Positions 30,019-60,658 of a stretch of DNA of 64,000 nt are shown here, piece by piece. This DNA is from Takakia lepidozioides (lineage: Eukaryota > Plantae > Bryophyta), in NCBI GenBank assembly GCA_030704615.1, contig CM060734.1, positions 14,756,001-14,820,000 on the forward strand, given 5' to 3'. The first letter of the stretch is position 1; each line of letters starts with the position of its first letter. Both the position numbers and the translations under genes were made by a program. The notes below the pieces were generated by a model. It saw nothing but the letters and a program-made list of their open reading frames with translations. It did no database searches and was not told the DNA's origin.

Positions 30019-33000
30019 ATGTATACTGTGGGAAGATTAAGCAACTACATCTCACAGGGTGTTTACACCGTTGCGGGCCCATTTCATCCCTTTGGGGGTG
30101 CGGTTGATATTATCGTTGTGGAACAGGAGGATGGCACCTTCAAGAGCTCACCTTGGTATGTTAAGTTTGGAAAATTCCAGGGCGTGCTTAAGCAAAGAGA
30201 GAACGTGGTGGACGTGGCAGTGAATGATGTAGATGTCAATTGTCATATGTATTTGGATTCCAAGGGCGAAGCCTACTTTCTGAAGGATGCAGAGTCTGAC
30301 AATGAAGAGTCAATTTATTCGCCAACCAGTGCAGTAATATCTGGAGATGAAGTATCTGTTGATCCGATGGTGCTCGAAGCGGCGAAAGAGGGGGATGGGA
30401 CTAATGACAAGGTGATAGAAGATGATGGCGAGAAAGATGACAGTAGCGATGAAAAAGAAGGAGATTTGGAGTTGAGGTTTGAGGGCAGGAAAGCGTCTTA
30501 TTTGTTAGTCCAGCAGGTATTCCTCCTGCTTTTTGCTGTATTCAACTTACATTTTATGAGCAAATAGGTCAGGGTGGAGTGCAGATTTATGATCATCACC
30601 GTCGATTCTACCCCTTTTTTCATTCCTTTTCTCTTAGGAACTGGGTGCAAAACAAAGTGGTGACATCAATAATCAATTCCTTGTTACGGTTATTGGCTAG
30701 TGTTAAGTCGGGGTTAAGTTGCATGCTGTGGCGGTTCTGAACCTGACGCACATTATTTTCCGGGACTATGACTCCAAGGATATGGCGCTACAGAGAGGTG
30801 TCAATGACAACATCTGAAAACAAACACACAGTAAAAAGATAATCCACATGGGATGACACTTGTATAGCTAGAGAGAGCAACCTCTGTTGATTGATTGGAA
30901 GTGCCTACTTAAGGAGTTATGAAGTGGTCGGTGTTGACTGGCAACTAACTTTACAGATATTGAATAGTGAAGTCTACTTTTGAGACCGCATTGCGGAACT
31001 TTGTTTCCATATTCTCTACAGTGACCAATGAAGTATGCAATTTTGAAAGTATTTCTGCATTGGAAAGAATGTACTCATAAGACGTTGTTGGCCGTAGCCT
31101 TGTGGTCATTGACCCCGCGCCCAGTTTGAGCGGAAACCAAAGGGACAGAACCTACCTCTGTCAGGGGCTGACATTGGTAGTAAGACTTACCTTTATACAA
31201 AGAATTGATTCGGGTTTTCCCGATATCCTCTAGAAATCCCTTCACACAAGCATCAATCTGCTGTGTGTGATTTGCCCAAAAACTAGGCCTCAGAAGGGCC
31301 TGGGCTTTTGGCTCAGCCTCGAGACTTTCAAAGTTGGTAAACAGAGGTACAGGCACAATTCTCTTGATAGATTGGAGGAGAGCTTCTCTCTGTGAGAGTA
31401 CCGCGGACAGTGAATCAGAAAAATGAATATTCTTCGGGTTGCCCACACAACGGGCAATTGCACTCTCCCTTTCCTCTCTGCTTCTGTTTACTGTTCAAAG
31501 GTAGGCTTCCTGCCCTGAGTTTAAATTTCAGTCTGGTGCCGAGAGTGGGTAGACCTTGAGGGTCATCCATGATATCCTCCCCCATGTCACAGACTGGAAA
31601 CAGGTTCAGGGAAGTTTTCTGCCTAACTTCATTTGCATCAGACAATTTACTGGTAACAGACATGGCTTTGGACACTACAGTCTCTAAGTCAGATTTATCC
31701 AGCAAGGTCAAGACTGCGGGTCCAGATTCAGATCCTTGAGAATCTCTTCTACTCTCTTCTGCCAGGACTTAGCCTGTTTGACAGGGCGGTCCTGTTTCCA
31801 AGATATAGAGTCGATTAACTTAGGGTATCTGGTGTTGGACGTGTTGCAACTGACCCCACCATCTGACCTTGAATTCATCTCGTTGGGAGCTTAAGGAAGG
31901 CATGCCAAACTCACCCCAAACAGCCACATTGGCTGTTTTGGAGCATGCTGACATGCACTCCTTAAGCATTGGAAAGAAAGAGGAAAAGAAACCAATTGAA
32001 GCAGAGAAATATACTCATTGATAGTTTCCTGCACACTCTGTGTAATTTAAGGCATAATCTGCACTTTTTACCAAGCTTTGTCAAGGCCAATTGTGGGTTG
32101 AAGCAACAACGATATAAAATCCAGTCTGAAAATTGCAATAGCACTTGCAAACAACCAATCACACTAGGTTACATGGGATTGACTGTTGCTTCAAAAGCTG
32201 TCATGAACTACATGCAGTCTATTATGGTTTGATTTCTTGTGAAGGGAGAGAAAGCGGGTTGGTTGATATTCGACTGTCAGTCAAGTATGCACTTTCAAAG
32301 TGTCTCTTGCTTGATCTAGGGCATGCCCTTCGTAGTGTATGCCCTCCTTGTATGGTGCCTCAAAGCCCCAGATTATGTTCCTGCGGTGACTTTCAATCAG
32401 CCCTTCTATTCCCTCGGGAAAAGACTTAGGGACAAGGAATGAAGTTGCTTTCTAGCAGCAGGCTATATGCAATAACCAGAAGAAGAGGACTATGTTTTAT
32501 ATTGGCAGTGTAAATTCAGAATCTCGTGTGCGATTGGTTTGAGCAATAAAATTTTTCTGTAAGCTCATTTTGGGAGTCCAACTAAATAAGAGTTTTGACT
32601 GTTCTCTAATGTAAGCTCGGAACAATCTTGCAGGCTGCTGCTGAAGGTTCTGAGACAAGACTGCCCGGTGGCAAAGAGAACTGTGAACCTGGCACCACAG
32701 TCACCAGAAGTGAGCATGATGTGGAGGCTGTTGGGGAGGACTCTGATGAATTGCTCTCATCCCTTGCTGCTGTGAAGTTTGCTCAGGCACCCTTGGTGGA
32801 GGTGAAAGGCAGAGAGGGCGGGTCAGCAATTCATGCACTTCTCAATCATGCAGTGGGGCTTGATGATCCAAATGATTCAGGGCCTGCTGGTACTCTTGTG
32901 GCAAATGCTGCCTTGGCCTCAATTGCGAAAGCTGCCTCGACTGCTGCTTCCCTGCAAGCAGATGGGCGTCTCCAATCTCCTGTAGGAATGGTGGTTAAGT

Positions 33001-36000
33001 TACCTTCTATTGAAAGATTGGAGTCAGTCCAAGCTGATGCCAACAATAACAAAATAAATGTTATTCCAAGTAATGAGAATGCTGTCTTTCAGATAGATGG
33101 CTCAGATTCTCTGGATACACAATTGGCTGAAGGTGGTATGGACAAGAAGCCTAACATCCAATCAGGGCAGCTTCCAGAGAGTCTTGTGGACCTAAAACAC
33201 AGGGAGAGGAACTCTGATTTGGTTTATGAGAGTGGGGCATCTTCGCCTGAAAATTCAACCCTGATGATTGCTAGTGCAGATGGGGTGGTCATCCTCGAGA
33301 CACCCAGACAAAGGATTTTACCTCCATTTTTATTAGCAGAAGAGGAACTGCAAGAATATCAACCGCAGGTAGGTAGTCTATTGTCAAATGACAAACAGGA
33401 AGTGGAGGAACATCTGAAGGAAAATGCTTCAGTGTCGAAGGAAGAAAGGTGCAAGTCCCTTGAAGGTGCTATTGCTGGACATAATCCTGAAAATACAGAG
33501 GTTTTGGAATGTGGATTTAAGACTGGGATAGATTCTGCTGGTGATGTGAGGGTGAAGCGCAAGTTAAATAATGTGAATGATGCAATCATATCTAGTCGGA
33601 ATGCATCAGATGGTAAAATTGGCACAGGGCATGGAACTGGTGGGCTGGCAGATGTGGCTCAGCAAACAGATGGAATGGCTGGGGAGGAGTCTCCCAAGTC
33701 GAAGGGTTACTTCTTTCAGTTGGACCCCATGGTAGATGGTTATGATAGGGATGAATCACTTGGGAAGTTGACAACATCTGAGAGGGAGCAGAAGTATTCA
33801 GGAAAGGATGGTATGGTTGGCATAGTTTCGAAGGGGAGTCGTATTCCGGCATTCAAGGCCAGTGTTGAACCGATTTTGGAGAAGTGGCAGACAGCCATTA
33901 AAAAAGATGGGGAGCAGGAACCGCCAGAGAAGAAGCCAAGAACCTTGGAGGAAACAGAGGGTTTGGTGGAAGGCAAGGAGAGGCTAGATGCTTGTGCACG
34001 GCGGCAGGCAAGACTGTCTGCAGTTGAAGTGATTTCAAGCCCAAGGCTGAAGGCTGCAGTTGAGCGAGAGCTGGCATGGCGCGATGTGGTAGAGAAAGCA
34101 GCTGCTGCATTGAAGATTGCACCTCTTGCTGCCAAAAGTCACCAGCCTAATCATTCAGACAAAAAGACAGAATCTGGTGCATCAAAGACCTCACCCAAAA
34201 GATTAGAGGATCCTGATAGTTTGTCAAATAATTTAACTGGTCTCGAAACCTTAGATGGGACCTTGGATTCTTCAAATGCTTCACAGAGAAAGTCTGATTC
34301 GGAGCAAGCAGAAAAGAGGTCATGGAACTGGTGGGGCTGGAGAGGCAGTGCTCCCGCTCCCTCCAAGCCAAACTCTGAACAAGGTGATAAGACGGAATTG
34401 AAGGATGCCACAGAAGCAGCTGGCCTTGTGAAGGAGCTTAAAGGGACGGACCTCGATGCAGATGAGGCCAAAGCAATGTCTGTGAATGGACGTGAGCTGG
34501 ATAACCTTGGCTCAGGGATATGTAATGAAAGTGTGAAGGAGGAGGCTGACACAAGGTTGAAGGAAGTGGAGAGAGATGCAGAAGAGGCTGGCATTGTTGA
34601 AGATATTGGTTTGACACATCAAGAAGCATCTCGAAATGAGAGTGGTGCAGGGAGTGCTGTGTTAATGGACTATAGCAAGATCGAGCATGGGTCAATGGAG
34701 AAAAAAGCAAATGGGGATGAGAAGGATATTGACAAAGAGCAATTTCCAGCCGCCTTAAGGGTTGAAGCCCCATTGGTTGAGAAAGGTGGGAAATTGGAAA
34801 GTGGGAGCTCATTGGAAAGTGCTGAAAGTTCTAAAACTGAAAGTATAAATGACCTAGCATCTGCAGGTCGAAGGTCTCAATGGCAGTTGGAAGAGATGGG
34901 AGCTGTGGAAGACAGACAGTCAGATGTCCCCATGACATCAGCAACTTCAAATATGGAGGACATTAGATTGATAGAGGGTGTAGAAGGAATGGAAGAAACT
35001 ACTGGTGATAAGAGGGGCGATCAGGTAGGTGGGGATTTAAGCCAGGAATCTTGCTCTAATTCGGAACAACTAGGAGGGTGTAGTAGGCAAGCTATTGCAG
35101 AGGCCAGTGTTGTTGATAGCTCATCAGCAGTGCCCCTTTTGGAGCAGTCTGGGGATGAACCACCTGCAAGTTTGTTGGTGGAGGACAGTAGCTGTAGGGA
35201 CATTGTGAGTGGTGCAATGGAGCTTGGTTGTGGGGGTGATGCAGCAGGTGATAAATGGACCATTGACATCACAAACGAAAAGCGAATGAAGGAATCGGTG
35301 GGTGATAAATTCCAAGGTCCAAGTAGGAGGTACGAAAGCGGTTTAGATAGTGATGTTGGATGTGTGCATTTGGCCCCCAGTCTTGCTAAAAAAGTGAAGG
35401 AGTTGCCAAGTATGGATTTCAGGGATGAATCCGAAGTAACATGTATTGCAACAGAAGGGGACAAAGATGCAGCTTCAGGAGCTAGAATACATCCTCAACA
35501 TGCTGGAAGTAGTGGTGGTGAGCTCCTTTCTTCAGTTCCGTGTCGGGTGGTCTCACCAGTGGGCTGCAGGAAGGGGGTTTCCTTTGCTGGTTCTCTTAAC
35601 CATATGTCCTCGCAAGATGGATTGGAAGAAGAGGGTTTTTGCAATGACAGCTTTTCTCTTTCGAAGTCTCCTGTGACAGGGGTAGCAAAAGATCTCAACA
35701 GTAAGATCGTAACTGTGGGCCCGGAGATTGTAAGAACAAGTGTAGGTCGTGTTGTGACATCTCCCATGGATGCTGAAGACGAGTTGTGCTCAAAAACAGA
35801 GAGTGCACTGGTACGATCGACCACCTTAGCAACCAGTCCTGACAAAGATGGTATTTCTGAAGGGTTGTATGGTGAAGAGAAGCATGAATTGAAGAGAGAG
35901 GATCTTGCAGAGGAAGGCGATAAACAAGGAGGTTCTCCAAAGAATTCAATGCATTTGGCGTTCCCTGACAGCGATGAGGTTGTAGTAGATGGAGCACTCA

Positions 36001-39000
36001 GTCAGAGCAAGGGAGTGGAGGGTGTAGGGATAGGTCAAGAGACCAGTGGGCATTTGGACACTAGGAGATGCAGAAGTGAGGTTGATGAGGTCAGGGAGAT
36101 GGACATGGAACAGGAAGGAAACAAGGTAGAGGATGAGGTTGGGCGTTCCCTATCCTATGATACACGGGCAGCAAGTCAAAAAAGTATTTACTTTGATGCA
36201 ATGACAAGTGAGGAGGATGAAGGGGAAGGGCAAGCAAATTCTTCAGGTGATGACAACGATGATCTGAGTCCGAACTGGGGTAAGAGTAGTCCGATTGGTA
36301 TTCCAGGGGCACACTCAAGTTCAAACACCCTGTTCACAGTGGTCAGGGATGAGGGCACCCTCTGGCCTCTCTCAGAATCATTGCCAGATGTAAGGTACCC
36401 ATCTGCAGGTGGGCAAATGTCTAATGTTCAGACTAGTTTGAGTCGCTCAGTGGGTTCAGAGCCACTGTCACATAGGCAAGCAGATGCAGTTGGAAGGGGC
36501 TCATCCTCTGAGAGAGTCTTGAGGAGTCCTCTGGAGGGCCCAAATGGGCAGAGAGAGGGCTTGAGTCGATCTGAGGTTGAGAAGGGTGTTGAAATTACAG
36601 GAGCTTCAGGGAGATCAGGGTATGAATCAGACGGGGAGGCTCCAGATGGAGGAGAGGCTACAACAGCTGAAACTGGTATCTTTCTCTTGCTCTCTCTTCC
36701 TCCACCCCGACATAAAAAGTTTCTTCTGTCTCTCTGCTAGGGCTTCCTGTGACATAATACTTTCTTCTTCTCCTCTCGCTGCTAGAGGATCTTTGAAAAT
36801 GTCGCTAAAGGCTTCCTTGCACCAACAAGTGACGGGCTTCATGAGAAGTTTTCCAGACAGCCAAGGCATCAGTGGGTTGGTTTACTGGTAATGTTTGCTT
36901 TCTCTGTAGTCATACCTTCCTGTAAGAGCTTCCTTGCATATGGGTTTTTAAAATGGTATGCCTGCCATCAGTAAGTCAGCTCCCAAGATCATCGTCCATG
37001 CAGGACCCGGTGGCTTTGGGAGGCCTTTCCTGCTCACCAATTCGAGGCTAAGTTTTTCAGATGTGTTTGCTAATGAACAGTGATACCTGCAGGATTTGAA
37101 CTTTCTCTATGTAGGCATCTTCTGAAGTAGCGAATGGGAAGGGAGGAGGCATCCAAAGTGTTTGCCACAACAAAGATATCTTATGATGAGTTTCGTAGTG
37201 CTGGGGCATCTATCGTCACAAACGATAAATTAGTGGTTCGAGTTGGGGGGCACTACTATCCATGGAGTGCAGCAGCTCCATTGGTGCTCGGGATACTTGC
37301 TTTTGGGCAGGTTGTCATGAAGGAAATAGAGGGCGCCATCCCTGTGGAGCACCCTGACCCCTCTGCCAACAGTAAAGCAGGAGCTGGCACCTTGGTTCCC
37401 ACAGCTAGTGGGGGATGGAAGTTGTGGCCCTTCCCTCTACGTCGACCTAAAACCCCCGAACAGAGGATTATCAATCCGACTGTTTCCAGGGAGGCATTAT
37501 TGGTTGCAGTTGGGGAAGCCATGGAAAGCCCTTTTGTGAATGACTTGCTCTTACAGAACGGCTACTACAAGCGCCCATGGAAGCACAAAGTGCGAACAAT
37601 AATTCCTAGTTCAAAAATGTTGTCCACAATGAAGCTTAAGGAGGGCAGTAACCAAATCACATTCACCTTTTTCACCCGAATGCTGGGCCGGCAGCAGGTT
37701 TGTGGCATAACATGCCTAATACCATACCCTGTCTGCGATTGCGTTCCATAATTGTGCTGGGGTTGGATGGGAGTTAAGGAAGTGGTATGCTGAAGTTTTT
37801 CTGCAATGTGTCAAGCGCAGTTGTGGCACTTATTTCGATGCTTTTGGATCCAGGTTGATGCTCAAATCTATCTTTGGAAGTGGAACACACGCATAGTCAT
37901 CTCCGATGTCGATGGTACTATCACAAAGTAAGTTCTGTCATTCATCATTTCTTCCAATGCAAAACACTTTGTTCAATGGGCAATTTACTCTTCATGCCCA
38001 TGTAGAGAAAGTCATTGCTGTTTGTTTGTTTTACCATACTCCTCCCCAAATATGATATTCTATTCAAAGACAGCTGAGCCCTGAATTGATGTGTTTAGCT
38101 CTGTAAGAAATGCAGTTTTGATACTGGTTGCCATCTAGTCATAGTTCTTGCCAATATTTGCTAGCCAACTTGAGTTAGAGTTAGGTGACCTTCCTGGGAA
38201 TGGAAGGTTGTGACATGGCGTGTTTGTCGCATTTGTCTTGTCCTTAGGCTTTCCTCCCCAGACTTCCTCAATGTCACCTCCATGTTCTGGCTGCCTGCTG
38301 GTGGTGTGGTCAGGCAAGGTCTGATGACCGCTGAGGTTTGAGTTATGACTGCTGTGGGGGGCATCTTTCTGAAGATTTTTGTACGGGTGTGCTGCTCAAT
38401 GGTCCACATGTCTTTACAACTAATTAAAAGCTAACAAAATTTACAAGCTAGAGTTGTTTTAGGATTTTCGTCTTTGTACATGTTCACAGCATCCCACGGT
38501 TTGCTGGTTCACATGAAAAGAATGGGGAGTACACTACTGTTTTTGGCATGTGTGAACAGATTCCGGCGGGTTTATTTGCTGATTCATGCTTGAGTTGCAG
38601 ATCAGATGTGTTGGGCCAGGTGATGCCATTGGTGGGCAAGGATTGGACACAGTCTGGAGTTGCCCGCCTGTTCTCTGCTATCAAGGTGCATCATCCTCCT
38701 AGAGATGGTCCTTGGAAGATTTGTGAAAGTTGCCGTCCTCACTGAGGGCTCATTCGAGTGAGGGCAAGTGTGGGGGAAAAAGTCAGGGGATGAATTCATA
38801 CAAGTGTGCTGCTAAATGAAGCGATATGGTTTTGTTCTCCACTAACAAACTCTTTGAAGGGCAATCACATGGTGCTGTCACTTAGTCTGCTCTACAATGC
38901 ATGTTTGGAAAACATCCTTACCTTCCTGAGGCACCAAGATGCAAGAGCTGCTTGTGATTGTGCCACAGGAAAATGGGTATGAGCTGATGTTCTTGAGTGC

Positions 39001-41391
39001 ACGCGCAATCTCCCAGGCATATCTCACCCGCCAATTTCTGCTCAATCTCAAGCAGGTGCACTGCTGCCCTTGACTAACAGCAGTCAGGATTCTGCTATGT
39101 GGTCTCTCTGAGAATGGCCTCTATGTTCTTAGTGCATCCATGCTATTCTTATACCTGCTTGAGAGATGGCTCGGTTGGCAATATGTAGCTGGTTTGTGGA
39201 CACAACCTTGGAACACTTGCAAGGACAACCAGCAATTTTCTAGAAGTGAAAACTATGTGGCACAGAATGTACACTGCTTGTAACAATGGAGTACTGTCAG
39301 TGGCGGACCAATACACAGGGTGTACAGATTAAGAGTGTTGTCTCCTTTCTGAAATTGCATGGAAATTGTTTGTTTGCAGGACGGTGAGGCACTTCCGGAT
39401 GGGCCAGTAGTCATCTCTCCAGATGGACTCTTTCCCTCTCTCTATCGTGAGGGTGTGTCTCTGTTTCCTCTTGCTTATTCATACATGCTACTCATCCACC
39501 TGTGATAATTGAGCCTTACATTCCTTTCTCCTTATGTTGCTCACCGTCAACCCATACACACCTTGATTGCCTATTGTTCTGCATATATAAAAGCTAATGG
39601 CATGGTCTGTCATCCTGTAAATTTCCATGTATTATTGGGGACTGCATTTACCTCCATTATTGGTCGGTCTCTGGGCTCTAAGACAGCCCGTATGTCATTT
39701 TATGTTCTTTGGTTAATATATCCTCAGTTTGAAAGAAGATCCCGAACTGTTTCCATGGTTTAAAAATATGTTCTCAATAGTTCCAACATTGTTGGTCTTT
39801 TTTAGTCAAAGAAGATTGCTGTGGTGGTACCAATTTTGCTTGAAACACTACCACATGCCTCAGCATGTTTCCCGCGACACTTATGTTCATCCTTGATTTG
39901 CACCAATAATTATCTAGCATAAATTGCCTCACCAACCTACAGATCTGCTCACAGTTTTTTGCGGTGATGCAGTTATACGCCGGGCTCCCCATGAGTTCAA
40001 AATTGCATGTCTTCAGGTAATGGCTCTTACATAGCAAGCTCACATACGTTAATGAGCTGGATAATTGTGAAGTGGTTGCTGTACCTGCCAGGTTGGGTTG
40101 AGGAGTCCGTTGCATGATAACCATATTCTGTACCACCTACAGTCAAGCAATTCATACCTCGGACCTCTTGTATTATGTTAGATAGCAAAATGTTTTAATG
40201 GCATGTGCAGTGGTATGCAGTGCGTCTGCAGAGCTATCTTTGTCCACAGACTCAGACCATCCTGAGAGGCATGAACTGGTTTACATCTTGCAGGACATCA
40301 GGTCTCTGTTTCCAGAAGATTGCAACCCATTCTATGCGGGCTTTGGGAACCGTGACACAGATGAGATCAGCTATCTCAAAATTGGGATTCCGAAGGGAAA
40401 AATCTTCATCATCAACCCCAAGGTGAAAACTTCCTTACATTAGTGTCTTCGTCCTGGGATAATTGGCTATCCTGCACAATGATTCCTAGCTTCCGACCTT
40501 GTTCGATGGTATTATATGTTTATGTTTAAATGACTTAATGTGAGAAAGTCTTGGGAGGTGGTTCTATCTCCAGTCTAACTCCTGGACTGAATCTTTGTAT
40601 CATGCTAGACTTCACTAGGCCTCCTAGCCTGAAGAATTTTCAAAGCTATGGATGCCCCTCCACTATTCCTGTGTCTTTCTATTTATTTCACTCTAACTTG
40701 TGGTGGAATGTAGGGAGAAGTGGCAGTGAACAACCGGGTGGATGTGAAGACATATACGTCACTACATAAGTTGGTGGATGATATGTTTCCAGCCATGATC
40801 CATACTGAACAGGTGATTCACAACACTTGCTTTAGTCCAGCTTATCACCCAGCCACTCACTTATCTTACTTCTGTCATAACATTGCTTACCTCTTTTCTG
40901 TGCCCCTAACTCTTTAAGCTTTGATGACAGCTTTGAGTTGAAGTTTTCCTGTAGATGACTTGTGTATGTATTATGGCTAGAATATCTCGAAGTGAGTTGA
41001 AGTTGGATGCCAAATCTTGCCTTAAATGACTTAAATCTGGCTACGCATCAAAGATTCCATATGAAGGGCTTTTTCCTTAGGAACCAACGCACTGGACTTC
41101 GCTATTGACCAAGTTCCAGAAGAGTCCACAGTGGGCTTTGCTCCAGCAATGGTGTTGGAATTGTTGTTATCGTAGCGAGACGTCTCTGGCTCTTGATGGG
41201 TGGTGCTACAATCATGGCAGGAGGACTACAACTCGTGGAACTTCTGGAAGCTGCCAGTCCCTGAGATTGAGAACGACTTGATAGAGAAAAGGTTTGTGGC
41301 GGCCCTTTCCTTGATGCGAATTTACTTTTTGGCATCTTATTGCAGTGTTTGTGTTGGGAAGATTGTACTCATAAGACGTTGTTTGCCGTAG
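30019..41391 (+). CDS. PAH1: Lipin / Mg-dependent phosphatidate phosphatase (PAH1/PAH2-like), 11 exons, 1968 codons, one in-frame TAG
   Basis: Exons 30019-30516, 32634-36675, 37093-37697, 37854-37927, 38601-38685, 38969-39055, 39380-39452, 39973-40016, 40294-40422, 40714-40812, 41221-41391; all GT-AG and phase-compatible (5907 nt). [44 protein letters not shown] motif [46 protein letters not shown] at 37128-37130. PAH1 vs PAH2 orthology cannot be resolved. Confidence 0.93.
31070..31965 (-). mobile_element. 5'-truncated LINE (family X, copy 1) in lipin intron 1
   Basis: Post-RT region and [11 protein letters not shown] zinc-finger tail; 13-bp TSD GCATTGGAAAGAA (31057-31069, 31966-31978). Confidence 0.9.
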
Positions 41392-42367
41392 CCTTGTGGC
41401 CATTGACCCCGCGCCCAGTTTGAGCGGGAACAAAAGGGACAACCTACCTCTGTCAGGGCTGACGTTGGTAGTAAGACTTACCTCCATATAAAGAATTAAT
41501 CCGGGTTTTCCAGATATCCTCTAGAAATCCCTTCACACAAGCATCAATCTGCTGTGTGTGATTTGCCCAAAAACTAGGCCTCAGGAGGGCCTGGGCTTTT
41601 GGCTCAGCCTCGAGACTTTCAAAGTTGGTAAACAGGGGTACAGGCACAATTCCCTTAATAGATTTGAAGAGAGCGTCTCTTTGGTGAGAGAACCCCGGAC
41701 AGTGTATCAGAAAATGAATACTGTCTTCAGATTGCCCACACAACGGGCAATTGCACTCTCCCTTTCCTCTCTGCTTTCTGTTTGCTGTTCAAAGGTAGGC
41801 TTCCTGCCCTGAGTTTAAATTTCAGTCTAGTGCCGAGAGTGGGTAGACCCTTGAGGTCATCCAAGATGTCCTCCCCCATGTCACAGACTGGAAACAAGTT
41901 CAGGGAAGTTTTCTGCCTAACTTCATTTTCATCAGACAATCTCATGGCAACAGACATGGCTGAGGACACTACAGCCTCTAAGTCAGATTTATCCAGCAGG
42001 GTCAAGACTTGCGGATCCAGGTCCAGGTCCTTGAGGATCTCTTCTACTCTCTTCTGCCAGGACTTAGCCTGTTTGACAGGGCGGTCCTGTTTCCAAGATA
42101 TAGAGTCGATTAATTTAGGATATCTGGTGTTGGGCATATGTTGCAGCTGACCCCACCATCTGACCTTGAATTCATCTCGTCAGGAGCTTAAGGACGGAAT
42201 GCCAAACTCACCCCGAACAGCCACATTGGCTGTTTTGGAGCATGCTGACATACACTCCTTAAGCACCCCCACTTGAATGGATTCTAGAGACTTAGCCTGG
42301 TTGGAGTTATCAACCCATATAGCAGATCCGTACTCCAAGGCAGGTCTAATAACGCGACAAAGCATGG
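41363..42367 (-). mobile_element. 5'-truncated LINE (family X, copy 2) at the lipin 3' end
   Basis: IRPALEYGSAIW...AVRGEFG (non-LTR RT C-terminal region) through CPLCGQSEDSIHFLIHCP; 13-bp TSD TGTGTTGGGAAGA (41350-41362, 42368-42380). Confidence 0.9.
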
Positions 42368-42443
42368 TGTGTTGGGAAGAGAAGAAATGGGAAGGGCTCA
42401 CAGAGGGTTTTGCAAGGAAGCGAGCCACATAGGTCGGGGACTA

Positions 42444-43019
42444 GGAATCATTAGATCCAAAAAGAACCTAATGGGCTTATCAGACTAGAACGTGTAACAC
42501 ACTGCATCTGGATGATAGCCCAACTGGTACAATAGATTCCCAGTTTTGAGGCAATCGAAGGTTAATGAATGCAGGTTGAGCAGTAGACACACATGGTCGC
42601 AGTTTGCCGAGATGATGTGTATTACTCCGATGGGATGAGATGCTCAGAGGGTGTTAGATAATATCCCATTGCTTGCCTTTACACCCTGCAGATATGAACC
42701 TTCAAAGTTTATAATACCCTGGGTAGAAAGGGAATCATTAGATCCAACAAGAACCTAATGGGCTTATCAGACTAGAACGTGTAACACACTGCATCTAGAT
42801 GATAGCCCAACTGGTACAACAGATTCCCAGTTTTGAGGCAATCGAGGGTTAATGAAAGCAGGTTGAGCAGTAGACACACATGGTCGCAGTTTGCTGAGAT
42901 GATGTGTATTACTCCCATGGGATGAGATGCTCAGAGGGTGTAGAGAATATCTTGTTGCTTGCCTTTACACCCTGCAGATATGAACCTTCAAAGTTTATAG
43001 TACCTTGGGTAGAAAGGGA
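42444..43019. repeat. Tandem duplication, 287-bp period, 2 copies
   Basis: GGAATCATTAGATCCAA at 42444 and 42731; near-identical units. Confidence 0.9.
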
Positions 43020-44879
43020 TATGGTGATTTGTGTTTACTTAATGCATAGTGCAAGCTTGGAAAACTCTATCCTTACATGGTGTGTTCAGCCATCTGCCTT
43101 TCTCGATCTGGAGAGCCTCTGAAAGTCCCTAGGGTCTGAATGATACACAGAAAGGGGAGCTTATGGAACCACAAACAACTTCAAGGGTTAGGTTGTCAAA
43201 CTCAAAACACAGACACGGAGGGAGAAAAGAGAAGGATCTTGTATTACTGAGGCACCCAGTAGCAACATGCATGGGATCAGTGAATCATATATCAGGCTAA
43301 GAAGGTAGGTTTATAGTATGGAAAGAGGGTGGAGTGTTGGTAAAATTGGTGACTCAGGGCTGGTATGTGTGGTTCTTGTTTGCAGTGTTGGCGGTGCAAG
43401 CTCCAAAAAGGGGTAAACATCATGCAGGAGGCATCTGGGGGAAGTGCAAACTGCTCCCTTAGACTCGGTTTCACCACACAGCACTGAGAGAGGCGAAATG
43501 GACCTCCCCATAGGCTGGAAACATGTACAGCAGGTATGACCACTTCCGTACGTTGGTCTGATCCAGGACTTGTAGAAATTTGTAGAGTAAATTGGGGTCA
43601 TCTATACATTGATTGTGGAGGAAAGCAGCAAGGTGGGGAAGTGGATATTGTCTGGCACTCCTTTCCCCTTAGAGAAGTCTGGGAGATGATTCATTGGATT
43701 GATTCTCACTTAGAGACCATACAATTTGATTAAACTGTCCACTGTGGTTTGTTGAATGGTGGCAGTTGCTGTGTGGGTTCTCCTTGGGCTATTTTTGTGG
43801 GGTTTTTCCCTTGCACAGGCTGGTTTTAGTAATTCACGATTTTTATGATTGATGGAGAAGCTTAATAAGTAGTTAGTGTACCACTAAGAAGCTGAGATTT
43901 GATGTTGCTCTTTAGACAAACTTTCAAATGGAACTCACTAGCTAGAGAGGCGAGGAAGTTGATAAGATGTGAAAATGGTTCATGTCAGCACCAGGGTATG
44001 TCCACTTTTAAATACCAGACTGGTCCTGGTATGAAGGGTCCCACCCTGGTAGTACAGATTACAACTAGCTGCACTAACATACACTCATGCCTAGCTCCAT
44101 CCACCATGAACTTACGCCTCGGCAAACAAATGTCCAAGCTATGTGCCTCTCACGGTCGCTATATTGGCCTCATTTAATGACAGATTTACCCAGTTATGGC
44201 ACAGATTCTCTACCTCAAACCCACCTAGTCAGCTCACGCCAGCTAGGCAAGACTTTGCTACAGAAGCCTGCTGGCTTGCGAACCGCTGTCTGACCGAAAA
44301 ACCCCCCCGCCCCAAAAAAAAACCTCGCTCACCGGTGGGGGGGTTACTCTGGGAGGTAATTTGTTTTCTCCTTCAAGTTTCACTGCCCTCAAACTAACAC
44401 AAGCCCGCCGTAAACTGGTATGGGGACCATGCTATGCCTGTGTATACCCAGACTGGGTATGGGTTGGGTGAAACCCTAAAGATATACTCCCCCCAGTATG
44501 TGTATCACCAGAGTCCATTGGTTCATTCATATTCATTCATATCCGACTAGTATGTTCTTCGATGCATGTACTCATACCTGTAATCCATACCTTGGTTCAA
44601 CCAGGTATACCGGTCCAACACTCGTCAACACATACTTAAAACACCCTGGGCATGATAGACAATCCTTTCATCTTCATTGGAACCTAGCAGAAAACCTATC
44701 TTAGTCAGGGTTTTGACAACTTTGGAGATGCATAACTAGGCTCAATTTTAATTTGTGGATGAATGGTGGTGGGTAGCCTGGGTGTGCACTGATTTTCAAT
44801 TGTGCGGCACTAAAATAATTTTGTGATAATCATTAATTATTAAATCCACGACCGTGGAAATAAAAACATTATAATGCTT

Positions 44880-47762
44880 TTGTGGAACCCCTACCCTCAA
44901 ACGCCTAATATGCCCCATACTGAACCTGATAGTAACCTTTACATAGCATTAGCCCCCTCATCTGATATACCAGCCCCCCCCCACCAACTCCCAACTGAAT
45001 AACACAGCAGCCCACTCATCCCCCACACAACTTAAAACGACACCAATGCCTAGATCATCGAAGCTATAGTAGGGGTCAAAACCCAAACGTCAATGGACGC
45101 ATTTGGCGCCACCTGCATAGATACATACTACCACTGCAAATGGGCTGGGAATTCCTAGGAAGATAACACATGGCAGATTGAGGATGACCTATTTGGCTCC
45201 CGTGACGATTGTGACCCAGACCATAACCTGACCCTTCTCACCACCTTTCATAAACACACCAACACCGACTATCTAACACATATTCATCATCAACACACCA
45301 CCCCCACACAACCCACGGACAACCGCTACGTTCACAAACCGCTCTTCGCCCCCAACGTACATATTTGCATAACAGAATGCAATCCCGACAAAGATGTCAA
45401 GCATAACCAACCAATTATTCACATGGGCCCCCGCCTCTCCAATATATACGCTCCACACGGTCGCTTCATGGGGATCATCCCCAATAACCGACTCGCATGG
45501 TTATGGGATAAATACTCTGATACAAACACACACTTACACTCCCTCCAACCCCCGAAACAAGACTTTGTTACCGAAATATATTGGTTTGTTGACCGATACC
45601 TCAAGGACACCCTTCCCAAGAAACCACGATCCCTCGCCAGACTCGAAACGGCATGCGCACATCATACACTACCACAGGATATTCTTGCCTTACTTATCAA
45701 CACCTTCAGCTCACCCACTTGTATTATTCCAGCCCACTGACATGTTTGATGGAACTGAACACATTTTCCAGACCACACCATCGAGACTGTATTTTTGGAG
45801 CCACGGGTAGTGCTACTCAGCACATCTGGGAAGGCAGGGGCTTTGCCCACCCCCTAGCCCCCTTTCTCACGAAGCCCTCCACTGGGCACGATTTGCAGCT
45901 CACTCTTCCCCTCCACCCCCACAATCCTCATCCTCACACAGCAAAACACACCCAGTACCTCTCATCCTTTATTACGCCTTCCGGAAGGGGTCAACCTACT
46001 AGCCACAATCGATCCAAACCAACTTAAGTATGCTCATACCCCTCCTCTCCCCAAATACCTTAGACGGAAAAAACCTACCCTAACCCTGATCCTATATGTT
46101 CAGTACCCCCTACATATAGCCATACCGACACCCTTCTGTCACCAGCTCAAGCAGCTATTAACCATAACTCATATAAAATGAAGGCCACCATCTACTACCC
46201 AGATACACCCCTCCACACCCGCGCAACCACCACACCCTTCCGGATCAAAACAAACAAAGCCTGGGACATGGCGCAACCGCGCCCCTCCCAAGTAACACAA
46301 ACAACACCCCCTCCCCCCCTTCCTTTAATATATCAACAAAACACCACCCTCAAATATCCCCCAGCAAACTCACATTACACTGATGGATCCCTTACCAACC
46401 ATACTGCATGATATGGAATTTATCATGCCGGCAGCGGTAAGGGGGTTGCCCTCCGGCTCCCTGACCCTGCCACCATTCTACGATCGAAACTTATGGCCAT
46501 CCACGATGTTCTCTCCCTGCTCGTCGCCTTCCCCCCCCCCCATACTATATCTTCACCGACAGCCTCACCTCCCTATATCTTATTCGTAACCACGTCTCCC
46601 GCCCCTCTTCCCAACATCATCACCCCGACCGTAATCTTATTGCCGCCATTGTTCAAAAAGCCACCTCTATAAACCATCCAGTACATCTGCTCAAAGTCCG
46701 CTCACACACCGGTATCCATGGCAATTAGGAAGCAGACTCACTTGCTCAACTTGGTGCTTCCCAACCTTCTGACCACTTTGACCAAAGAAGCAAACAAACA
46801 AGCTGCCGCGTCCATTAGCCATACCAAAGTACACATACAAAAATGGACTCAATCCGCTATACTACACCATAAACTTTCCAACCACTTTTGGCTAACCAAA
46901 GTCACCACTGATGCACAAATCCGACAAACACTCAAATTCAGGTACGCCCAATACATGGGCCACCAACGCAAACACATCTTTTGGCCGCAAGGGACACCTG
47001 GCCGCATCTCCTCAGCCAATGTACGCACCCGATCATACATGGCCTGCATATCACGAGACATAACCAGGCAGTTTGGCACCTCCATAAGCTTTTTCCAAAG
47101 CGTGCTGAAACTCGATGGTTTTTTCTCATGAACGCTGGTACCTATCAAGGCCGGCCACCCGACCACACTGTACCACCATGGCTGCTACCATGCATATGTA
47201 CTCAACCACCATGCTCCTACCGAGCTAGGCTTTGCCCATACATACTCCTAGCCTACCCATCAACACTTTGCCTCCCACTTCCCCATCCCCACAACTCACC
47301 ATCCATTTTATTGAATTCACATTCTGCCATGATCACTACCCAAACGACTCGATCTTAGAAAAACGGAAAAAATATACCCCGTTCATCCTCGCGATCCGAA
47401 GACGGGGCTGGAAAATCGGCCCGCTAACCGTCATTACCGCCGGTACCCGAGGTGACATTCATAACGCCAGTATTAATAACATACACGATAATTTCCCAAT
47501 TCCCATCATACCCATTCACAAATGCTTCAAAGAAATTCATCTCACGGCACTCCGCTCACTCACAACTATTATTACCAACAAACGCTAGCTGGAATCCGGC
47601 ACCTCAACCGTCCCCTAGGTCCCCCAGGGTACCACTATCTCCCCCATTTTCAAAGGTCATCAGGTGTCCCACATGACACCCCCCTCGTTATGTTATGTAG
47701 GGCCCACCCCCGAATGGGGGCAGTAGCCACAAGGCGAAGTGGTTCTTAGAAGTGGTTCTTAG
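44880..47762 (+). mobile_element. 5'-truncated Dualen/RandI-like non-LTR retrotransposon (chromo-like, PCIF1-like, RNase H and RLE domains), decayed
   Basis: C/A-rich sense strand. RNase H: HYTDGS (~46372), YIFTDSLTSL, KVRSHTGIHGN*EADSLA. RLE: HLLSQC...RHNQAV, IHFIEFTFCHD...EKRKKY...AGTRG. 3' end GAAGTGGTTCTTA x2. RT not present in the fragment. Confidence 0.8.
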
Positions 47763-48474
47763 TTACGCCGGCTTCGGCCGGAGTCCTCTCTCTCTGCTTT
47801 TGTGGACCTGGAATTTGAGCTCCTACATAAAACTTCCACAAAATTATGTTTTGGCTCATAATGTTCCCAAGCTTGAGACCCACAAATTCCAATGTAGTGG
47901 TGCAGGGACTACCACGATGGCAAATTGTTGGTCTATCTTGCTTTCTCTTCTCCGGGCTATTTGGTATGGGTTTACATACAAATTAGCAATACTGTCAGGC
48001 AAGAATAATACTATCTGTAGGCCACTGCAGCTCTTTATATACCTCAGCTAGTATGGAGCGCTCTCTCTCTCCAGATTGTTACATGCAATTAGCCTCGTGA
48101 TGCTTCTTGGCCAAAAGACACTTCAAGGATGTTAATCCAGCTTCGTCTGCAAAGTGTGTAGTGGTGTAAAGCACTGGTTCTTGATTGCACTAGTTATTCA
48201 CTGTTTGCTATGTAGAGTTTGTGTCATGTATGTCTCCTTTTTAGTGAACTTGCAACCACTACATTTAACATGTGAGATAGATAGTGCCTGCACTCACCCG
48301 AAATCCAGGTGCAGGTGAAGACTTTTTAGAAAAGCTGGATCTCTCCGAGACTTTAGTGACAAGATAGGGGAATATTTAGAAATGCTACATGATCTATCGA
48401 TCATATCCTGTTCAATCTGATTATTATGGATTCCATCTGTCCAGAGAAGATCGGTTTTAAAATATAGTACTTAC

Positions 48475-54640: not shown

Positions 54641-57600
54641 TGTCGCACACCTCACTTCGGTAAGCTCCCCTTTAAGTCATAGTTACTCACTTTGATGCGC
54701 GCGCCTGACTCCCAACCTGGCCGCCGGGCCAACTTGGAGCTTCGGCTGCTCACCGGGGCATAGCGGTCCCCCTTCGATCTCCCGAAAGACCCTCCACCAA
54801 TTTGGGCCTAGCGGGAATTCCCTTTGGTAGATGGCAGTCCGGAACAGCTCCCCACTCTTTGGTCGCTTTCGGCTCGCTCGCTTACTCACTAGTTTTTGGT
54901 CACCAACGGGCTTGCACCGTTCTCGGGGTTACTACTCCCTATATATACTTCTGTAGCTGTCCGCGGGTTTCACACAAACCACCACGAAGACCCTCGACTC
55001 CCGGTGGTGAGTCGTGGTGAGTCTTGGCCCACTCACCACGGCCCCATTGGGCGTGATGAGTCCCAAGACCCCACGACTCCCACCACGAGGTCTCCACCCA
55101 TGGTGAGTCCTATGCCACCCCCACTAAGTCCCGCTAAGCTACCACCACCCCTTGTGGAGCCACCCCCACCGCAACCCGGTGTGCGGGGCTCCACCTAGTA
55201 AGCGCCTCCGCCTCCTTGAGTGCCTTGGGCACTCAAGGGTGCTTCAGCCCCCGTACCTATCGTTGCTACTGCCCCCATCACAGGGGCAGCCCCTTCTGTG
55301 TCCCGACCCCTTACCCTCAAGGCAAAGGGCTGCGACACACATCCCTACCAACAGGGAGTCAATGTCCTCATCGACTTGTCCATTTTGTAGAAACGAACAT
55401 CCAAGTTGTGGCGTCCCACATCAAGGAGTTTGTTTCCGCACCATGGCGTCCCCATGGCAAAGAACCAAACCCCACACTTGACTCTACTCTCCACTAGCTA
55501 GTTCGGCCGACTTCCTCCAAGTCCCGGCCAAGGGTGGAGCCTCTCAAGCTCCTCCCAGTGCACTCTTCTTGGCCTACTTCAAGGCCAAGGAACGATCCTC
55601 CCCGAGGATCGAATCGCCTTACTGCAACAACATTGCTTGCGACCGCTCATGATGCCGCTTTGGGCATCACCTTGAGCAAGGGTTCACCTCGAACCCTCTT
55701 TGACTAGGAAGATAACCTTGAACCAACCGTGCGCCCCAATCACTACAATTGGGTCCGCCTTGGAATGCTGGCCTGAGGTACAGGAACACGCCGAAGCCGC
55801 ACTACGACTTCGTCCCGAGGCTACACGATTATAGTACGTGAACGGAAGCACGTAGCTTCCGCGTTAGCCCGCACTACAAGGCAACCCCCTCGGTAGCGTA
55901 GTTATAGTACACGCACGCGCCAGGTGCGCACTAGCACGTGAACTCCCAAGGAAGGCGCATGTTTCCTTGCCCCTTGGATGGGAGTCACCCGATTTCGGCA
56001 CTGCGCAACACACGATTAACCCAATTTACCTCTCCCACTTTTGTAAGCTAGCATGCATTCTACACACTAGCCAACCATACCATGCATCACCATTCCAAAC
56101 AAAATAGAAAGCACAACATTTGGAAACCATTTCATTTAAAGCAAATTTTGTACAATACAAGTTTTTGCAATCGGATTCCTTAGCTAGCTAAGCTGGGCTA
56201 AGCATGCATTTCCTCCCCCACGCTCCAAGGTTGATGTCCCCATCAACTCTTCTTCCGCTTTTGAGGTCGCCCTTCGAACGCTGCAACCGCCTCGGATGCG
56301 TTTCCCATTTCTGAGGCACGCACCCAAGATGCCTCCACATGATGATAGCCCTTCCATTTGACGAGATACTCCGTTTCTCGTTCTTGAACCTCCTCGACTT
56401 AAGCACTGTCTCCACCTCGTACTCAGGTTCATTTTCATGATCCAACAGCACAGGTGGCGGACGCAACACTTGCTGTCGATTCGGACGCGCTTCATCTTTG
56501 AAGTAAGGCTTCAAAAGGGAGACGTGGAATACTGGATGCACCTTGCTGTTTGCCGGCAACTCCAATTCATACACATCCTCATTCATAACCTTCCGGATGC
56601 GAAAGGGTCCCGCATACGGAGGTACGAACTTCGGACTCACTTCCGGAGGTAGTCGGAAATTCTTGATGTTCAACCAGACCTCCGTGCCTGCCTCAAACTT
56701 CACTTCCCTCCGCTTCCGATTTGCTTGCCTTTCATACCGTTTCCTAGCTTTGGCAATGTTGTACTTTGCGAGCTTCAACAAACGCTCGCGTTCTTCCAGT
56801 ACCGCCGCTACTGCCGGTTCCTCAACATCCTGGGCGGCCCAACTTGTCGGCACCAGAGGTGCTTTTCTATAGACCAATACGAAAAGGGAAACTCCCGTTG
56901 CGGAGTGTTCTGTGTTGTTATAACAGAACTCTACCGCGTCTAAGTGTTCCACCCAGTCTGATTGGTCTACCGACACGTAATTCCGCAAGATCTGTTTCAC
57001 TACGGAAATCACTCTTTCCGTTTGGCCGTCGGTCGTAGGTCGGAAGGCGGTGCTCATCTTCAGCCTCGTCCCCATCTTCTTCCAAAGTGTCTTCCAAAAT
57101 TTACTCGTAAACTTTGGATCGCGGTCCGAGACAATATCCTTCGGGACTCCATGATGCTTTAAGACGTGGGCGAAGTAAAGTCGCTTTGTTTCCTGCGCCG
57201 TTGCCGTCTCCTTGGTGGGGATGAAATGGCCCATTTTACTGAACCTATCCACCACCACCATGATTGCATCGAATCCTTTTGACAGCGGCATAGCAGTCAT
57301 GAAATCCATCGAGACGATTCCCAAGTCCCCTCTGGAATCGGCAAGGGTTGTAACAGCCCCGCTTGCTTTTTGTACTCGCTCCGGTTTTGTTGGCATGTGG
57401 TGCATGTCTTGACATACTCCTCTGCCTCCTCCTCAGTTTGGGCCAGAAATACTCTTTCTTCAAGAGTGCCGCAGTGCGCTTGGCTCCGCCGTGGCCCGCA
57501 AGCGGGCTATCATGGCATTCTCTCAAGAGACTATCTCTGATCCCTCCCTTCGGCACGTAGAGACGCTTTTGCTTATACCGGAGCAGTCCATTTTGCAAAT

Positions 57601-58808
57601 GGAACTGTGATTTAACCCCCATCCTCAAGTCCTGCATCACGGACTTCGCCAGCTCATCCTTCCGGCAAGCCTTCCGGATCTTCCTTTGGAGCGCCGTCTC
57701 GCCCCTGTACACCAACATGAGCTGTTGCTTTCTACTTAAAGCATCGGCCACCACATTGTCCCGTCCCGGTTTGTACCGGATATCCACGTCGAACTCCGCC
57801 AAAGTATCTTGCCACCTAAGTTGTTTTGGGGACAACTTGGGCTGCGTGGCAAAATACTTCACCGTAACATTGTCCGTGAACACCTTCACTGGGTTGGAAC
57901 CAACATAGTGGCGCCAAAGCTCAAGACAATGCACCACCGCCTTCATCTCTTTTTTGTGCGTCGGCCACCGTCGCTCCACTTCATTCAGTTTCTTACTTTC
58001 ATAAGCCACTGGACGTCCATCTTGCATAAGTACACCCCAATCGCGAAGTCCGACGCATCTGTATGAATCTCGAACGGACGATCGAACTCCGGGATTTTCA
58101 AGACTGGAGCTTCCACCATCCGCTGCTTCAATTCAGCAAAAGCTTGGCCACAAAGGGTGTTCCATACCCAGACTTTGGATTTACATAGAAGGTCCGACAG
58201 CGGCCCCGCGATCTTGGCGAAATTTCTCACATACTCCCGGTAATAGGAGGCGAGTCCAAGGAAGGATCGCACTCCCGGGACCGAAGTTGGAGGCTCCCAG
58301 TCCAAGATCGCCCTCATCTTTCTGTCATCCATTTTGATCCCATCCTGTGTAATCACATGCCCCAGGAACTCCACTTTCGTGACCCCGAATTCGCACTTTG
58401 AAGCTTTGGCGTACAGCTTCCCTTCCCGCAATTTTTGGAACACCCTTTTGAGGTGCTCCAGGTGCTCCTCCTTTGTTTTTGAGTACACCAAGATGTCGTC
58501 GATGTACACGATCACAAAATTATCCAACCACTCCTGAAAAAGGCTGTTCATCAGCGTGCTAAAGGTCGCGGGTGCATTGGTGAGCCCAAAAGGCATCACC
58601 AAGAACTCATATGAACCATACCTTGTCCTGCACACAGTCTTCTCCTCATCTCCTTCCGCCACCCGAATTTGATGATAGCCGGAGCACAAGTCGATCCGGC
58701 TGAAATACTTCGCTCCTGCCAACCGGTCGAAAAGGTCGTCGATCTTTGGCAAAGGGTACCGGTTTTTGATAGTCACCTTATTCAAAGCCCTGTAATCGAC
58801 ACACATGG
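54641..58808 (-). mobile_element. 3' half of a chromoviral Ty3/gypsy element (RT, RNase H, IN, chromodomain, 3'LTR 54641-55337)
   Basis: [64 protein letters not shown], chromodomain EYEVETVL...YLVKWKGY. LTR with TGTCG...CGACA ends, matching 62789-63514. Confidence 0.93.
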
Positions 58809-59270
58809 GAAATGGCCACAAAGGAGATCATATGCCATCGCAGGCTTCTCCAAAGCATTATATGCCCCCAGCCTCACCCCACCCCTCTCTACAGTGACAA
58901 CCAATCAGCCATACGGTTGGTACACAATCCGGAATTTCACCGGAGGACGAAGCACATAGATGTGGGAGAGCATCAGGAAGAGGGCCATATCGACATTCGT
59001 TATGTGCCTACAGTCAATCAAGTTGCTGATGTGCTTACCAAGCCACTAGCAACTAACAGATTTCAGCAAATGTGCAGTCTACTTGGACTACAGCCAGCAG
59101 CTTGAGATTTTTTGAAAGCTACACGAGTGTGTTACCGTTGAGTGGGAGTGTTGAATGGCATGTTTTCTGCAATGCCAACACACTAGATCTGCTCTCTAGA
59201 TCAGTTCTCTAGATCAATGCCGGCTTTGTAGGAAGTCACTGCTGCACCACCGCACCTTCTAGCGGTGACT
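58809..59270 (+). mobile_element. Ty1/copia 3' remnant (RNase H, PPT, start of LTR)
   Basis: [10 protein letters not shown]...LYSDNQSAI...NPEFHRRTKHIDV...QVADVLTKPL...LLGL, then TTGAGTGGGAG followed by TGTTGAA (~59149). Confidence 0.9.
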
Positions 59271-59271: not shown

Positions 59272-60658
59272 AACTCAGGGCAAGAAGCCTACCTTTGAAC
59301 AGTAAACAGAAGCAGAGAGGAAAGGGAGAGTGCAATTGCCCGTTGTGTGGGCAACCCGAAGACAATATTCATTTTCTGATTCACTGTCCGGGGTACTCTC
59401 GCTAGAGAGAAGCTCTCCTCCAATCTATCAAGAGAATTGTGCCTGTACCTCTGTTTACCAACTTTGAAAGTCTCGAGGCTGAGCCAAAAGCCCAGGCCCT
59501 TCTGAGGCCTAGTTTTTGGGCAAATCACACACAGCAGATTGATGCTTGTGTGAAGGGATTTCTAGAGGATATCTGGAAAACCCGTATTAATTCTATTTAT
59601 AAAGGTAAGTCTTACTACCAATGTCAGCCCCTGATAGAGGTAGGTTCTATCCCTTTGGTTTCCGCTCAAACTGGGCGCGGGGTCAATGGCCACAAGGCTA
59701 CGGCAAACAACGTCTTATGAGTACATTCTCTAGAATCCATTCAAGTGGGGTGCTTAAGGAGTGTATGTCAGCATGCTCCAAAACAACCAATGTGGCTGTT
59801 CGGGGTGAGTTTGGCATTCCGTCCTTAAGCTCCCGACGAGATGAATTCAAGATCAGATGGTGGGGTCAGCTGCAACATATGTCCAACACCAGATATCCTA
59901 AGTTAATCAACTCTATATCTTGGAAATAGGACCGCCCTGTCAAGCAGGCTAAGTTTTGGCAGAAGAGAGTAGAAGAGATTCTCAAGGACCTGGACCTGGA
60001 ACCGCAAGTCTTGACCCTGCTGGATAAATCTAACTTAGAGGCTGTAGTATCCAAAGCCATGTCTGTTGCCATGAGATTGTCTGATGAAAATGAAGTTAGG
60101 TAGAAAACTTCCCTGAACTTGTTTCCAGTCAGTGACATGGGGGAGGACATCTTGGATGACCTCAAGGGTCTACCCACTCTCGGCACCGGACTGAAATTTA
60201 AACTCAGGGCAGGAAGCCTACTTTTGAACAACAAACAGAAGCAGAGAGGAAAGGGAGAGTGCAATTGCCCGTTGTGTGGGCAACCTGAAGACAATATTCA
60301 TTTTCTGATACACTGTCCGGGGTTCTCTCACCAAAGAGACGCTCTCTTCAAATCTATCAAGGGAATTGTGCCTGTACCTCTGTTTACTAACTTTGAAAGT
60401 CTCAAGGCTGAGCCAAAAGCCCAGGCCCTCCTGAGGCCTAGTTTTTGGGCAAATCACACACAACAGATTGATGCTTGAGTGAAGGGATTTCTAGAGGATA
60501 TATGGAAAACCCGGATTAATTCTATATATGAAAGTAAGTCTTACTACCAACGTCAGCCCCTGACAGAGGTAGGTTATGTCCCTATTGTTTCCACTCAAAC
60601 TGGGCGCGGGGTCAATGGCCACAAGGCTACGGCAAACATCGTCTTATGAGTACAATCT
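59272..60658 (+). mobile_element. Two head-to-tail 5'-truncated LINE family X copies (59272-59730 and ~59727-60658)
   Basis: Same zinc-finger tail and 3' end CGCGGGGTCAATGGCCACAAGGCTACGGC...TTATGAGTACAWTCT as copies 1 and 2. Confidence 0.9.

Follow-up and report, generated by a model that had tools for sequence, protein, structure and literature searches.

Can a retroelement carry an adenine methyltransferase fold of the PCIF1/CAPAM type together with a chromatin reader, and could the two act as writer and reader of a mark? This question is raised by a locus of the bryophyte Takakia lepidozioides. Within a stretch of 64,000 nucleotides (positions 14,756,001 to 14,820,000 of contig CM060734.1 from GCA_030704615.1; hereafter the window, in whose own numbering all positions are given), 44887-47794 is a dead, 5'-truncated, multi-copy insertion of a Dualen-type long interspersed nuclear element (LINE). 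The original prediction, made from the letters of the window, had proposed that this element joins a possibly inactive PCIF1-like adenine methylase to a chromodomain. We found both domains in the family. The reading that we favour, with moderate confidence, is that the PCIF1-fold domain would be in most lineages a non-catalytic module that binds the element's own RNA, while the chromodomain would tether the particle to chromatin.

Identification of a PCIF1-type fold in the LINE

Six-frame translation recovered all peptides quoted in the original prediction on the + strand, where it had placed them and in alternating frames: IIEAIVGVK...YYHCKW at 45054-45143, TLPQDILALLINTF ending near 45707, QLTHLYYSSPLTC...WEGRGFAHPL in the next frame (45707-45856), EALHWARFAA in the third frame (about 45871-45900), and TILIL in the first frame again (45921). 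The PCIF1-like Rossmann methyltransferase core (45665-46136, +) has three frameshifts (near 45706, 45855, and 45910), and its motif IV starts at 45848. Because the methylase-like frames of the window taken separately match nothing in Pfam, PF12237 included, the methylase claim was tested on relatives.

A phmmer search with 45054-45737 as query yielded 91 proteins at E<=0.001, the closest being P0001 (41%), and 16 metagenome loci of relatives were recovered, from which 14 open reading frames (ORFs) were scanned. Two WD40 proteins among the 91 matches (P0066 and P0071) were false positives and were dropped. PF12237 was detected in 13 of 30 scanned relatives, picked mainly for length out of the phmmer matches (4 of the 13 above cut-off), in 11 of the 14 ORFs from the loci (all above cut-off), and in 46 of 50 methylase-profile matches, 19 of which also contain RNase H. 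P0001 has Chromo (E 4e-9) and PCIF1_WW (E 2e-5) within one ORF, and 45707-45853 of the window is 63% identical (30/48) to this protein. Read through with an X at each break, the window scored 295 bits against a family profile from which its own rows had been left out. The segment is present family-wide.

Searched against PDB sequences, the family profile matched PCIF1 alone (E 5.8e-4). A structure model of the relative L001, built from 124 alignment rows, reached a predicted local distance difference test (pLDDT) score of 85.7; it supersedes an earlier model from 31 rows (pLDDT 52.6), which gave Z 6.8 only. The six best Foldseek matches of the newer model are all CAPAM structures (E 1.9e-8 to 1.4e-6; next match 7.9e-3), and VIA-align superimposed it on residues 422-651 of zebrafish CAPAM with Z 14.0 and a root-mean-square deviation of 4.3 over 205 residues (next match 8.3). 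Profile and structure searches thus agree on PCIF1, and the confident model predicts that the relatives' domain adopts a Rossmann fold of the PCIF1/CAPAM type, as had been proposed.

In the model, residues 104-333 pair with zebrafish CAPAM 422-651, a stretch that takes in most of the conserved ECNP...WLW...RY segment of the window (45372-45664, +); W135 is kept in 108/108 and W137 in 102/107 aligned rows. According to the model, most of this segment would correspond to the PCIF1 region that precedes the methylase core, i.e., the C-terminal part of the helical domain. Between it and the chromodomain, family-profile alignment places a helix and linker (45201-45371, +), the helix being residues 38-68 in the model. 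Zebrafish CAPAM was matched at 422-651 only, so that most of the helical domain is absent from the LINE domain, and Pfam scans of the relatives and the window detected no WW domain.

Selection on the domain is apparent from the ratio of nonsynonymous to synonymous substitution rates (dN/dS), whose median is 0.17 across nine loci (34 of 36 pairs finite). The maximum of 0.55 comes from pairs with the distant L009, in which dS is near saturation. For the downstream linker, the ratio lies at about 0.4-1.0 (6 pairs). When seven long proteins are compared, the core averages an identity of 0.47 (10 pairs) and RNase H one of 0.52 (3 pairs), against 0.33-0.35 in linkers. Purifying selection acts on the PCIF1-like domain. 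The idea of a host fragment captured and carried neutrally, or of a resemblance by chance, which the missing PF12237 match of the window's own frames might suggest, is extremely improbable and effectively refuted by the in-frame domain in dozens of diverged lineages, the low dN/dS, and the structural match at Z 14.

As regards origin, the domain of P0204 adjoins PCIF1 clusters in the Atlas (0.93, 204/256 features); the labelled members of these nearest clusters are mostly giant viruses (Nucleocytoviricota), and this proximity to giant-virus PCIF1-like proteins suggests a lead on the origin of the domain only. Window piece 45159-45737 gave Atlas scores of 0.80 or less, and a word search with the same piece among longer proteins found none of 451 candidates. 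Among the matches of the methylase-profile search (50 from 4841 candidates) there was no cellular PCIF1, DIRS, or named algal Dualen protein, and none of 66 pattern matches in viral contigs was confirmed.

Catalytic and ligand-site residues

The catalytic motif of the methylase clan is [DNSH]PP[YFW] (PMC4738411; this and the other publications cited by PMC number are drawn on in excerpts), and that of human PCIF1 spans N553-F556 (PMC8287941, PMC13290413). In the original prediction, NPPF was said to appear as HPL. The L proved to be an artefact of the window copy, as a frameshift splits motif IV. Sister copies were studied through contigs of public sequencing runs (X1 and X6), whose tabulated depth is not copy number, and two sister contigs of run X6 read H-P-P-Y, with the same spacing to EALHW as in P0001 and the family.

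In nearly all relatives the catalytic motif is degenerate. NPPF occurs in 0 of 84 rows, HPHN is the commonest form (39/84), and [DNSH]PP[YFW] fits a single row of 81 (P0008, HPPY), so that the catalytic motif was recovered at this position in the two sister contigs and hardly elsewhere. Of 48 clusters at 80% identity, the first motif residue is H in 43, PP is present in 7, and the fourth residue is aromatic in 2. Motif I, which is ECFASPLN in PCIF1, has E replaced by S in 89/101 and N by T in 90/98 rows; this E and N are kept in all PCIF1 rows of the supplement portion consulted (PMC4738411). In a tree of 67 rows that cover the motif with at least 140 residues each, the window falls, as a long branch, into a clade of 11 rows (support 100/94), whose motifs include HPPN, HPPD, HITN, HQHN, YPTN, YPTD, FPKD, FPMD, and FPTD besides the HPPY of P0008. 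Since the aromatic fourth residue varies even in the window clade and E and N of motif I are replaced, a pseudo-enzyme is favoured.

Several observations weigh against a non-catalytic, RNA-binding module. The H retained at the first position of motif IV (85/91 rows, alignment A5) is a residue allowed in the catalytic motif, and the sisters of the window copy read HPPY (2 contigs, agreement 0.87, single run). The position of E558 holds E in only 34/81 rows. Moreover, the cap in CAPAM is held between the helical and methylase domains (PMC8287941, PMC13290413), and the cap pocket would be incomplete because only zebrafish CAPAM 422-651 was matched. In favour of such a module, a Trp after the strand following motif IV, likely the counterpart of the cap-contacting W588 by its place in the alignment, is kept in 60/62 rows.

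The observations on motif IV would also fit catalysis: in the window sub-family at least, the domain could be a functional N6-adenine methyltransferase that marks the element RNA (m6Am/m6A) or newly made cDNA (6mA), H taking the place of N as hydrogen-bond acceptor. HPPY in the two sister contigs and in P0008 of the same clade obeys the general motif, one cellular PCIF1 (Monosiga) carries HPPF (PMC4738411 supplement), F-S-S-P, D-x-x-F-G-S-x-G, and the entire Rossmann fold are retained, and some retrotransposon C5 methylases are active (PMC5890265). We nevertheless consider this explanation unlikely, given that the nearest tree relatives (HPPN, HPPD, HITN, YPTD, and FPTD) do not hold the aromatic residue, that the motif I replacements extend across the family, and that the HPPY evidence for the window family comes from those two contigs of one run. 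Activity somewhere in the family likewise appears to be a minor possibility.

Alternatively, the domain may have neither RNA nor S-adenosylmethionine as ligand and serve as a structural spacer or protein-interaction module, either linking reverse transcriptase to RNase H or acting as a mimic or decoy of host PCIF1. Its location between thumb and RNase H and the structural look of the most invariant residues (WLW, RY) are compatible with such a role, and mimicry was proposed for the DIRS1 domain by Iyer et al. (PMC4738411). We regard this as distinctly unlikely, because cleft-lining positions (motif IV H-P, FGSxG, and the W588-like Trp) are at least 90% conserved, and a mimic would lack the WW domain, which binds RNA polymerase II. 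As far as its sequence tells, the domain is a module that works like a PCIF1 fold and departs from a CAPAM enzyme in its motif, WW domain, and helical domain.

Chromodomain

The chromodomain that had been suspected from IIEAIVGVK...YYHCKW was confirmed, at 45051-45200 (+), with stops at 45051-53 and 45156-58 in the window copy. When X stands in for the in-frame stop, 45054-45260 matches PF00385 at E 5.7e-6 and 26.6 bits (cut-off 25.1). Of the PDB sequences, 18 matched at E<=1, each of them either chromodomain-type or unnamed; the best one is 'Chromo domain-containing protein 1' (3g7l, E 3.3e-4), and in sequence the domain is closest to Chp1/HP1 chromodomains. P0001 reaches 36.6 bits, and most other lineages lie below the Pfam Chromo cut-off.

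Cage positions are numbered after HP1. Two of the three cage aromatics (second and third positions) are found in the sister copies and the same two in P0001, whose cage is canonical; the first position is a stop in the window copy. In most of the sister-copy depth, position 45150 is T and the stop at 45156-58 is absent, so that the reading is W-x-G-Y; loose ends give W-x-G-F. Other lineages have F or Y at the first position in 49/61 cases, and the third aromatic persists in 1 of 68 distinct chromo-like stretches and is lost in the other 67. The mean identity of the chromo segment is 0.37, barely above that of linkers. Judging from these residues, methyl-lysine reading is plausible for the window sub-family and doubtful elsewhere. 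Of the proposed writer-plus-reader pair, the reader may thus stand in the window sub-family, whereas motifs I and IV of the family lend the writer no support. It is quite improbable that this sub-family combines a functional adenine methylase of the HPPY type, acquired from PCIF1 or a giant virus, with a caged chromodomain, writing m6A(m)/6mA on its own RNA/cDNA and reading methylated H3 for targeting, with pseudo-enzymes in sister lineages.

Family architecture

The layout of overlapping relatives agrees with the Dualen-type host element that had been proposed. P0234 has an apurinic-like endonuclease (APE) with the motifs SWNCG, QE, GDFN, D, and SDH (Exo_endo_phos_2 E 9e-4, below cut-off) and a reverse transcriptase (RT) with its motifs (RVT_1 E 1e-28), and it is 89% identical over 353 aa to the PCIF1-bearing P0224, which runs from the thumb to the PCIF1-like domain. 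RT is joined to the PCIF1-like domain in P0239 and P0285. L005 reads likely RT thumb, chromo-like domain, PCIF1-like domain, RNase H, and CCHC finger, and L009 extends through a restriction-like endonuclease (RLE). P0204 contains thumb, PCIF1-like domain, RNase H (E 3e-15), CCHC (CxxC..H...C), and an RLE with the motifs KPDI / IEFTYC / KxxKY; RLE was found in P0204, L009, and the window. By this chain of overlaps, the family layout is APE, RT, Cys-rich linker, chromodomain, PCIF1-like domain, RNase H, CCHC, and RLE, which is the arrangement of Dualen elements enlarged by two inserted domains.

Dualen elements are defined by the joint presence of APE and RLE (PMC9977147, PMC5029228), and the assignment is made because both occur in the family; it rests on domain layout, the described Dualen elements being compared by their descriptions, and is to that extent provisional. 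Two points tell against it: no single ORF among the relatives spans the full layout from APE to RLE, and APE was shown in a lineage 54% identical to the window sub-clade (P0234 vs P0285). P0285, the longest member of the window clade, starts inside RT, and no APE was seen in that clade. A search with the L005 thumb gave 210 matches, and the best 120 of these, which were listed, include no named Dualen protein. Pfam scans of the relatives gave no match to a recombinase of the DIRS tyrosine type.

A conserved Cys/His cluster between RT thumb and chromodomain (L005:640-730; equivalents in P0204, P0224, and P0234), outside the window copy, is possibly an extra zinc finger, judged by its residues. 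Database labels of family proteins are wrong ('ribonuclease HI'). NCBI lists P0244 as an RNase H protein from an archaeal metagenome-assembled genome, which likely reflects eukaryotic contamination of the bin.

Boundaries and sister copies of the element

The 2.9-kb insert is bracketed by a 12-bp target-site duplication (TSD), an exact 12-mer found within the window only at 44875-44886 and 47795-47806 (both +). The copy itself (44887-47794, +), recognised by TSD, tblastn, repeat depth, and loose ends, is frameshifted and comprises the 3' part of the ORF and the 3' untranslated region; P0204/P0276 tblastn matches span 44895 to 47606. P0234 gave no tblastn match to the window, and RT and APE are absent from this copy. 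Downstream of the methylase core lie RNase H (46375-46755, +; frameshifted, with stops; PF00075 E 5.7e-6 and tblastn), a CCHC zinc finger (46960-47030, +) whose CxxC half is missing here and intact in P0204, and a degenerate RLE (47200-47588, +; 35% identity over 110 aa to the P0204 C-terminus, E 2e-23). Sister contigs have ~50 additional letters at 46986-46995, in the CCHC region. The 3' untranslated region (47589-47794, +) ends in a short (CT)n tail.

In run X1, 105 contigs exit the element at 47795 into further CT repeats and dissimilar flanks, and 165 of the 309 contigs on 45030-45920 are less than 90% identical, pointing to many diverged sister copies in the same organism. The 5' truncation, simple-repeat tail, and TSD are hallmarks of target-primed reverse transcription.

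The last 120 bases (47675-47794, +) have a summed contig depth about ten to twenty times that of the element body, hinting at very short copies or a partner short interspersed nuclear element. They contain a C(UUCG)G hairpin and an AGUA/GAA pattern, which presumably resembles a bulged-G motif; the fold z of the element 3' end is -0.30, and an Rfam scan of it gave no match near the gathering score. At 44113-44413 (+), a 301-bp insert in another repeat, skipped by contigs, codes for a diverged piece of the PCIF1-adjacent segment found in the element (tblastn 44179-44391, E 1e-5).

Proposed mechanism

An ancestral Dualen element may have captured the C-terminal part of a PCIF1 gene, lacking WW and retaining a partial helical domain, from its host or a giant virus. 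As methyl transfer decayed, the cleft would have been kept for binding RNA or its 5' end, which would help the template RNA to assemble in cis or protect it. The chromodomain could bias insertion towards methyl-H3 chromatin wherever a lineage has retained the cage. Nicks made by APE/RLE would then prime reverse transcription at the target, starting at the (CT)n 3' end, and leave truncated copies with a 12-bp duplication, such as the one in the window.

Other features of the window

Ty3/Gypsy debris at 22.5-28 kb includes a broken C5 cytosine methylase (23640-24470, +; PF00145 E 2.2e-5) that has FxGxG and PCQ motifs and lies between protease and RT; a CxxC stretch follows near 27.9 kb. This element resembles KnitGypsy-Dnmt3 (PMC5890265) and is probably the other 'writer' element of the original prediction. 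A chromovirus-type Ty3/Gypsy element (56188-58827, -) has a C-terminal chromodomain motif near 56370. A lipin gene (29929-41290, +) contains a 1376-codon open stretch (32610-36740), with LINE-like fragments in or beside the gene. The window also contains three copies of one repeat (31056-31968, 41456-42654, and 59272-61138), tandemly duplicated, frameshifted pentatricopeptide repeats (2300-4950, +), a GH28 fragment, a long near-perfect inverted repeat (6868-10028) with arms 93-95% complementary around 8345-8855, and a hAT-like DUF659 ORF (19426-20463) between 50-bp tandem repeats.

Comparison with known systems and implications

Dualen/RandI LINEs were reportedly described by Kojima and Fujiwara in 2005. 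The present family shares with them APE and RLE in one family, RT, RNase H, a CCHC finger, and TSD (PMC9977147, PMC5029228), and with RandI a short-repeat 3' tail (PMC3747384), which here consists of (CT)n. The excerpted Dualen descriptions name neither a chromodomain nor a PCIF1-like domain (PMC9977147, PMC5029228), whereas both are present here, and the hosts they describe are green algae and cryptophytes rather than a land plant. The cryptophyte Dualen-1_GCr also has an accessory methyltransferase, but its SET domain is an unrelated fold (PMC5029228).

The closest parallel concerns DIRS1 (Iyer et al. 2016, PMC4738411), in which a likely inactive PCIF1-clade domain (group 2, clade 1) lies in the retroelement polyprotein near RNase H. 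DIRS elements are tyrosine-recombinase elements, in contrast to the LINE-type RLE, tail, and TSD observed here. The DIRS1 domain is listed under Pfam 'Dam' (PMC4738411 supplement), while the LINE domain matches PF12237 only and, unlike that of DIRS1, has the PCIF1-specific WL..RY helix and FGSxG and is located before RNase H. These differences suggest that the two domains were captured independently. The PCIF1 list of Iyer et al., in the supplement portion available, has no RT or RNase H fusion (PMC4738411). Compared with PCIF1/CAPAM, the cap-specific adenosine N6-methyltransferase of mRNA (PF12237; PDB 6IRV-6IS0), the LINE domain shares the fold and the motif order but differs in being fused within a LINE ORF, in having HPxx instead of NPPF, and in the absences and motif I changes noted above.

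SymbioLINE-Dnmt and KnitGypsy-Dnmt3 (de Mendoza et al. 2018, PMC5890265) are retroelements with a captured methylase, but of the C5 cytosine type, and the methylase of SymbioLINE-Dnmt occupies a separate upstream ORF, whereas it lies inside the polyprotein here. Chromodomains of Ty3/Gypsy LTR (long terminal repeat) elements are fused to integrase (PMC12477816), in contrast to the LINE ORF in our case. As described in these excerpts, none of the three is a LINE that unites a chromodomain and an N6A-type fold. The literature searched, a body that excludes the original Dualen paper, Repbase, and subscription papers, yielded no description of either a PCIF1-like domain or a chromodomain in a LINE.

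After DIRS1, the LINE family would be a second retroelement class to capture and keep a PCIF1-clade domain. It places a chromodomain in a LINE ORF and extends the Dualen range to a land-plant genome. The natural variants HPPY (P0008-type), HPPN (P0001), and HPHN (P0204) form a series for asking under which conditions the PCIF1 fold catalyses and under which it binds. The convergence with DIRS1 suggests an unrecognised step of retrotransposition, in RNA end or cap handling or in self-marking, that is worth a 200-residue domain under selection.
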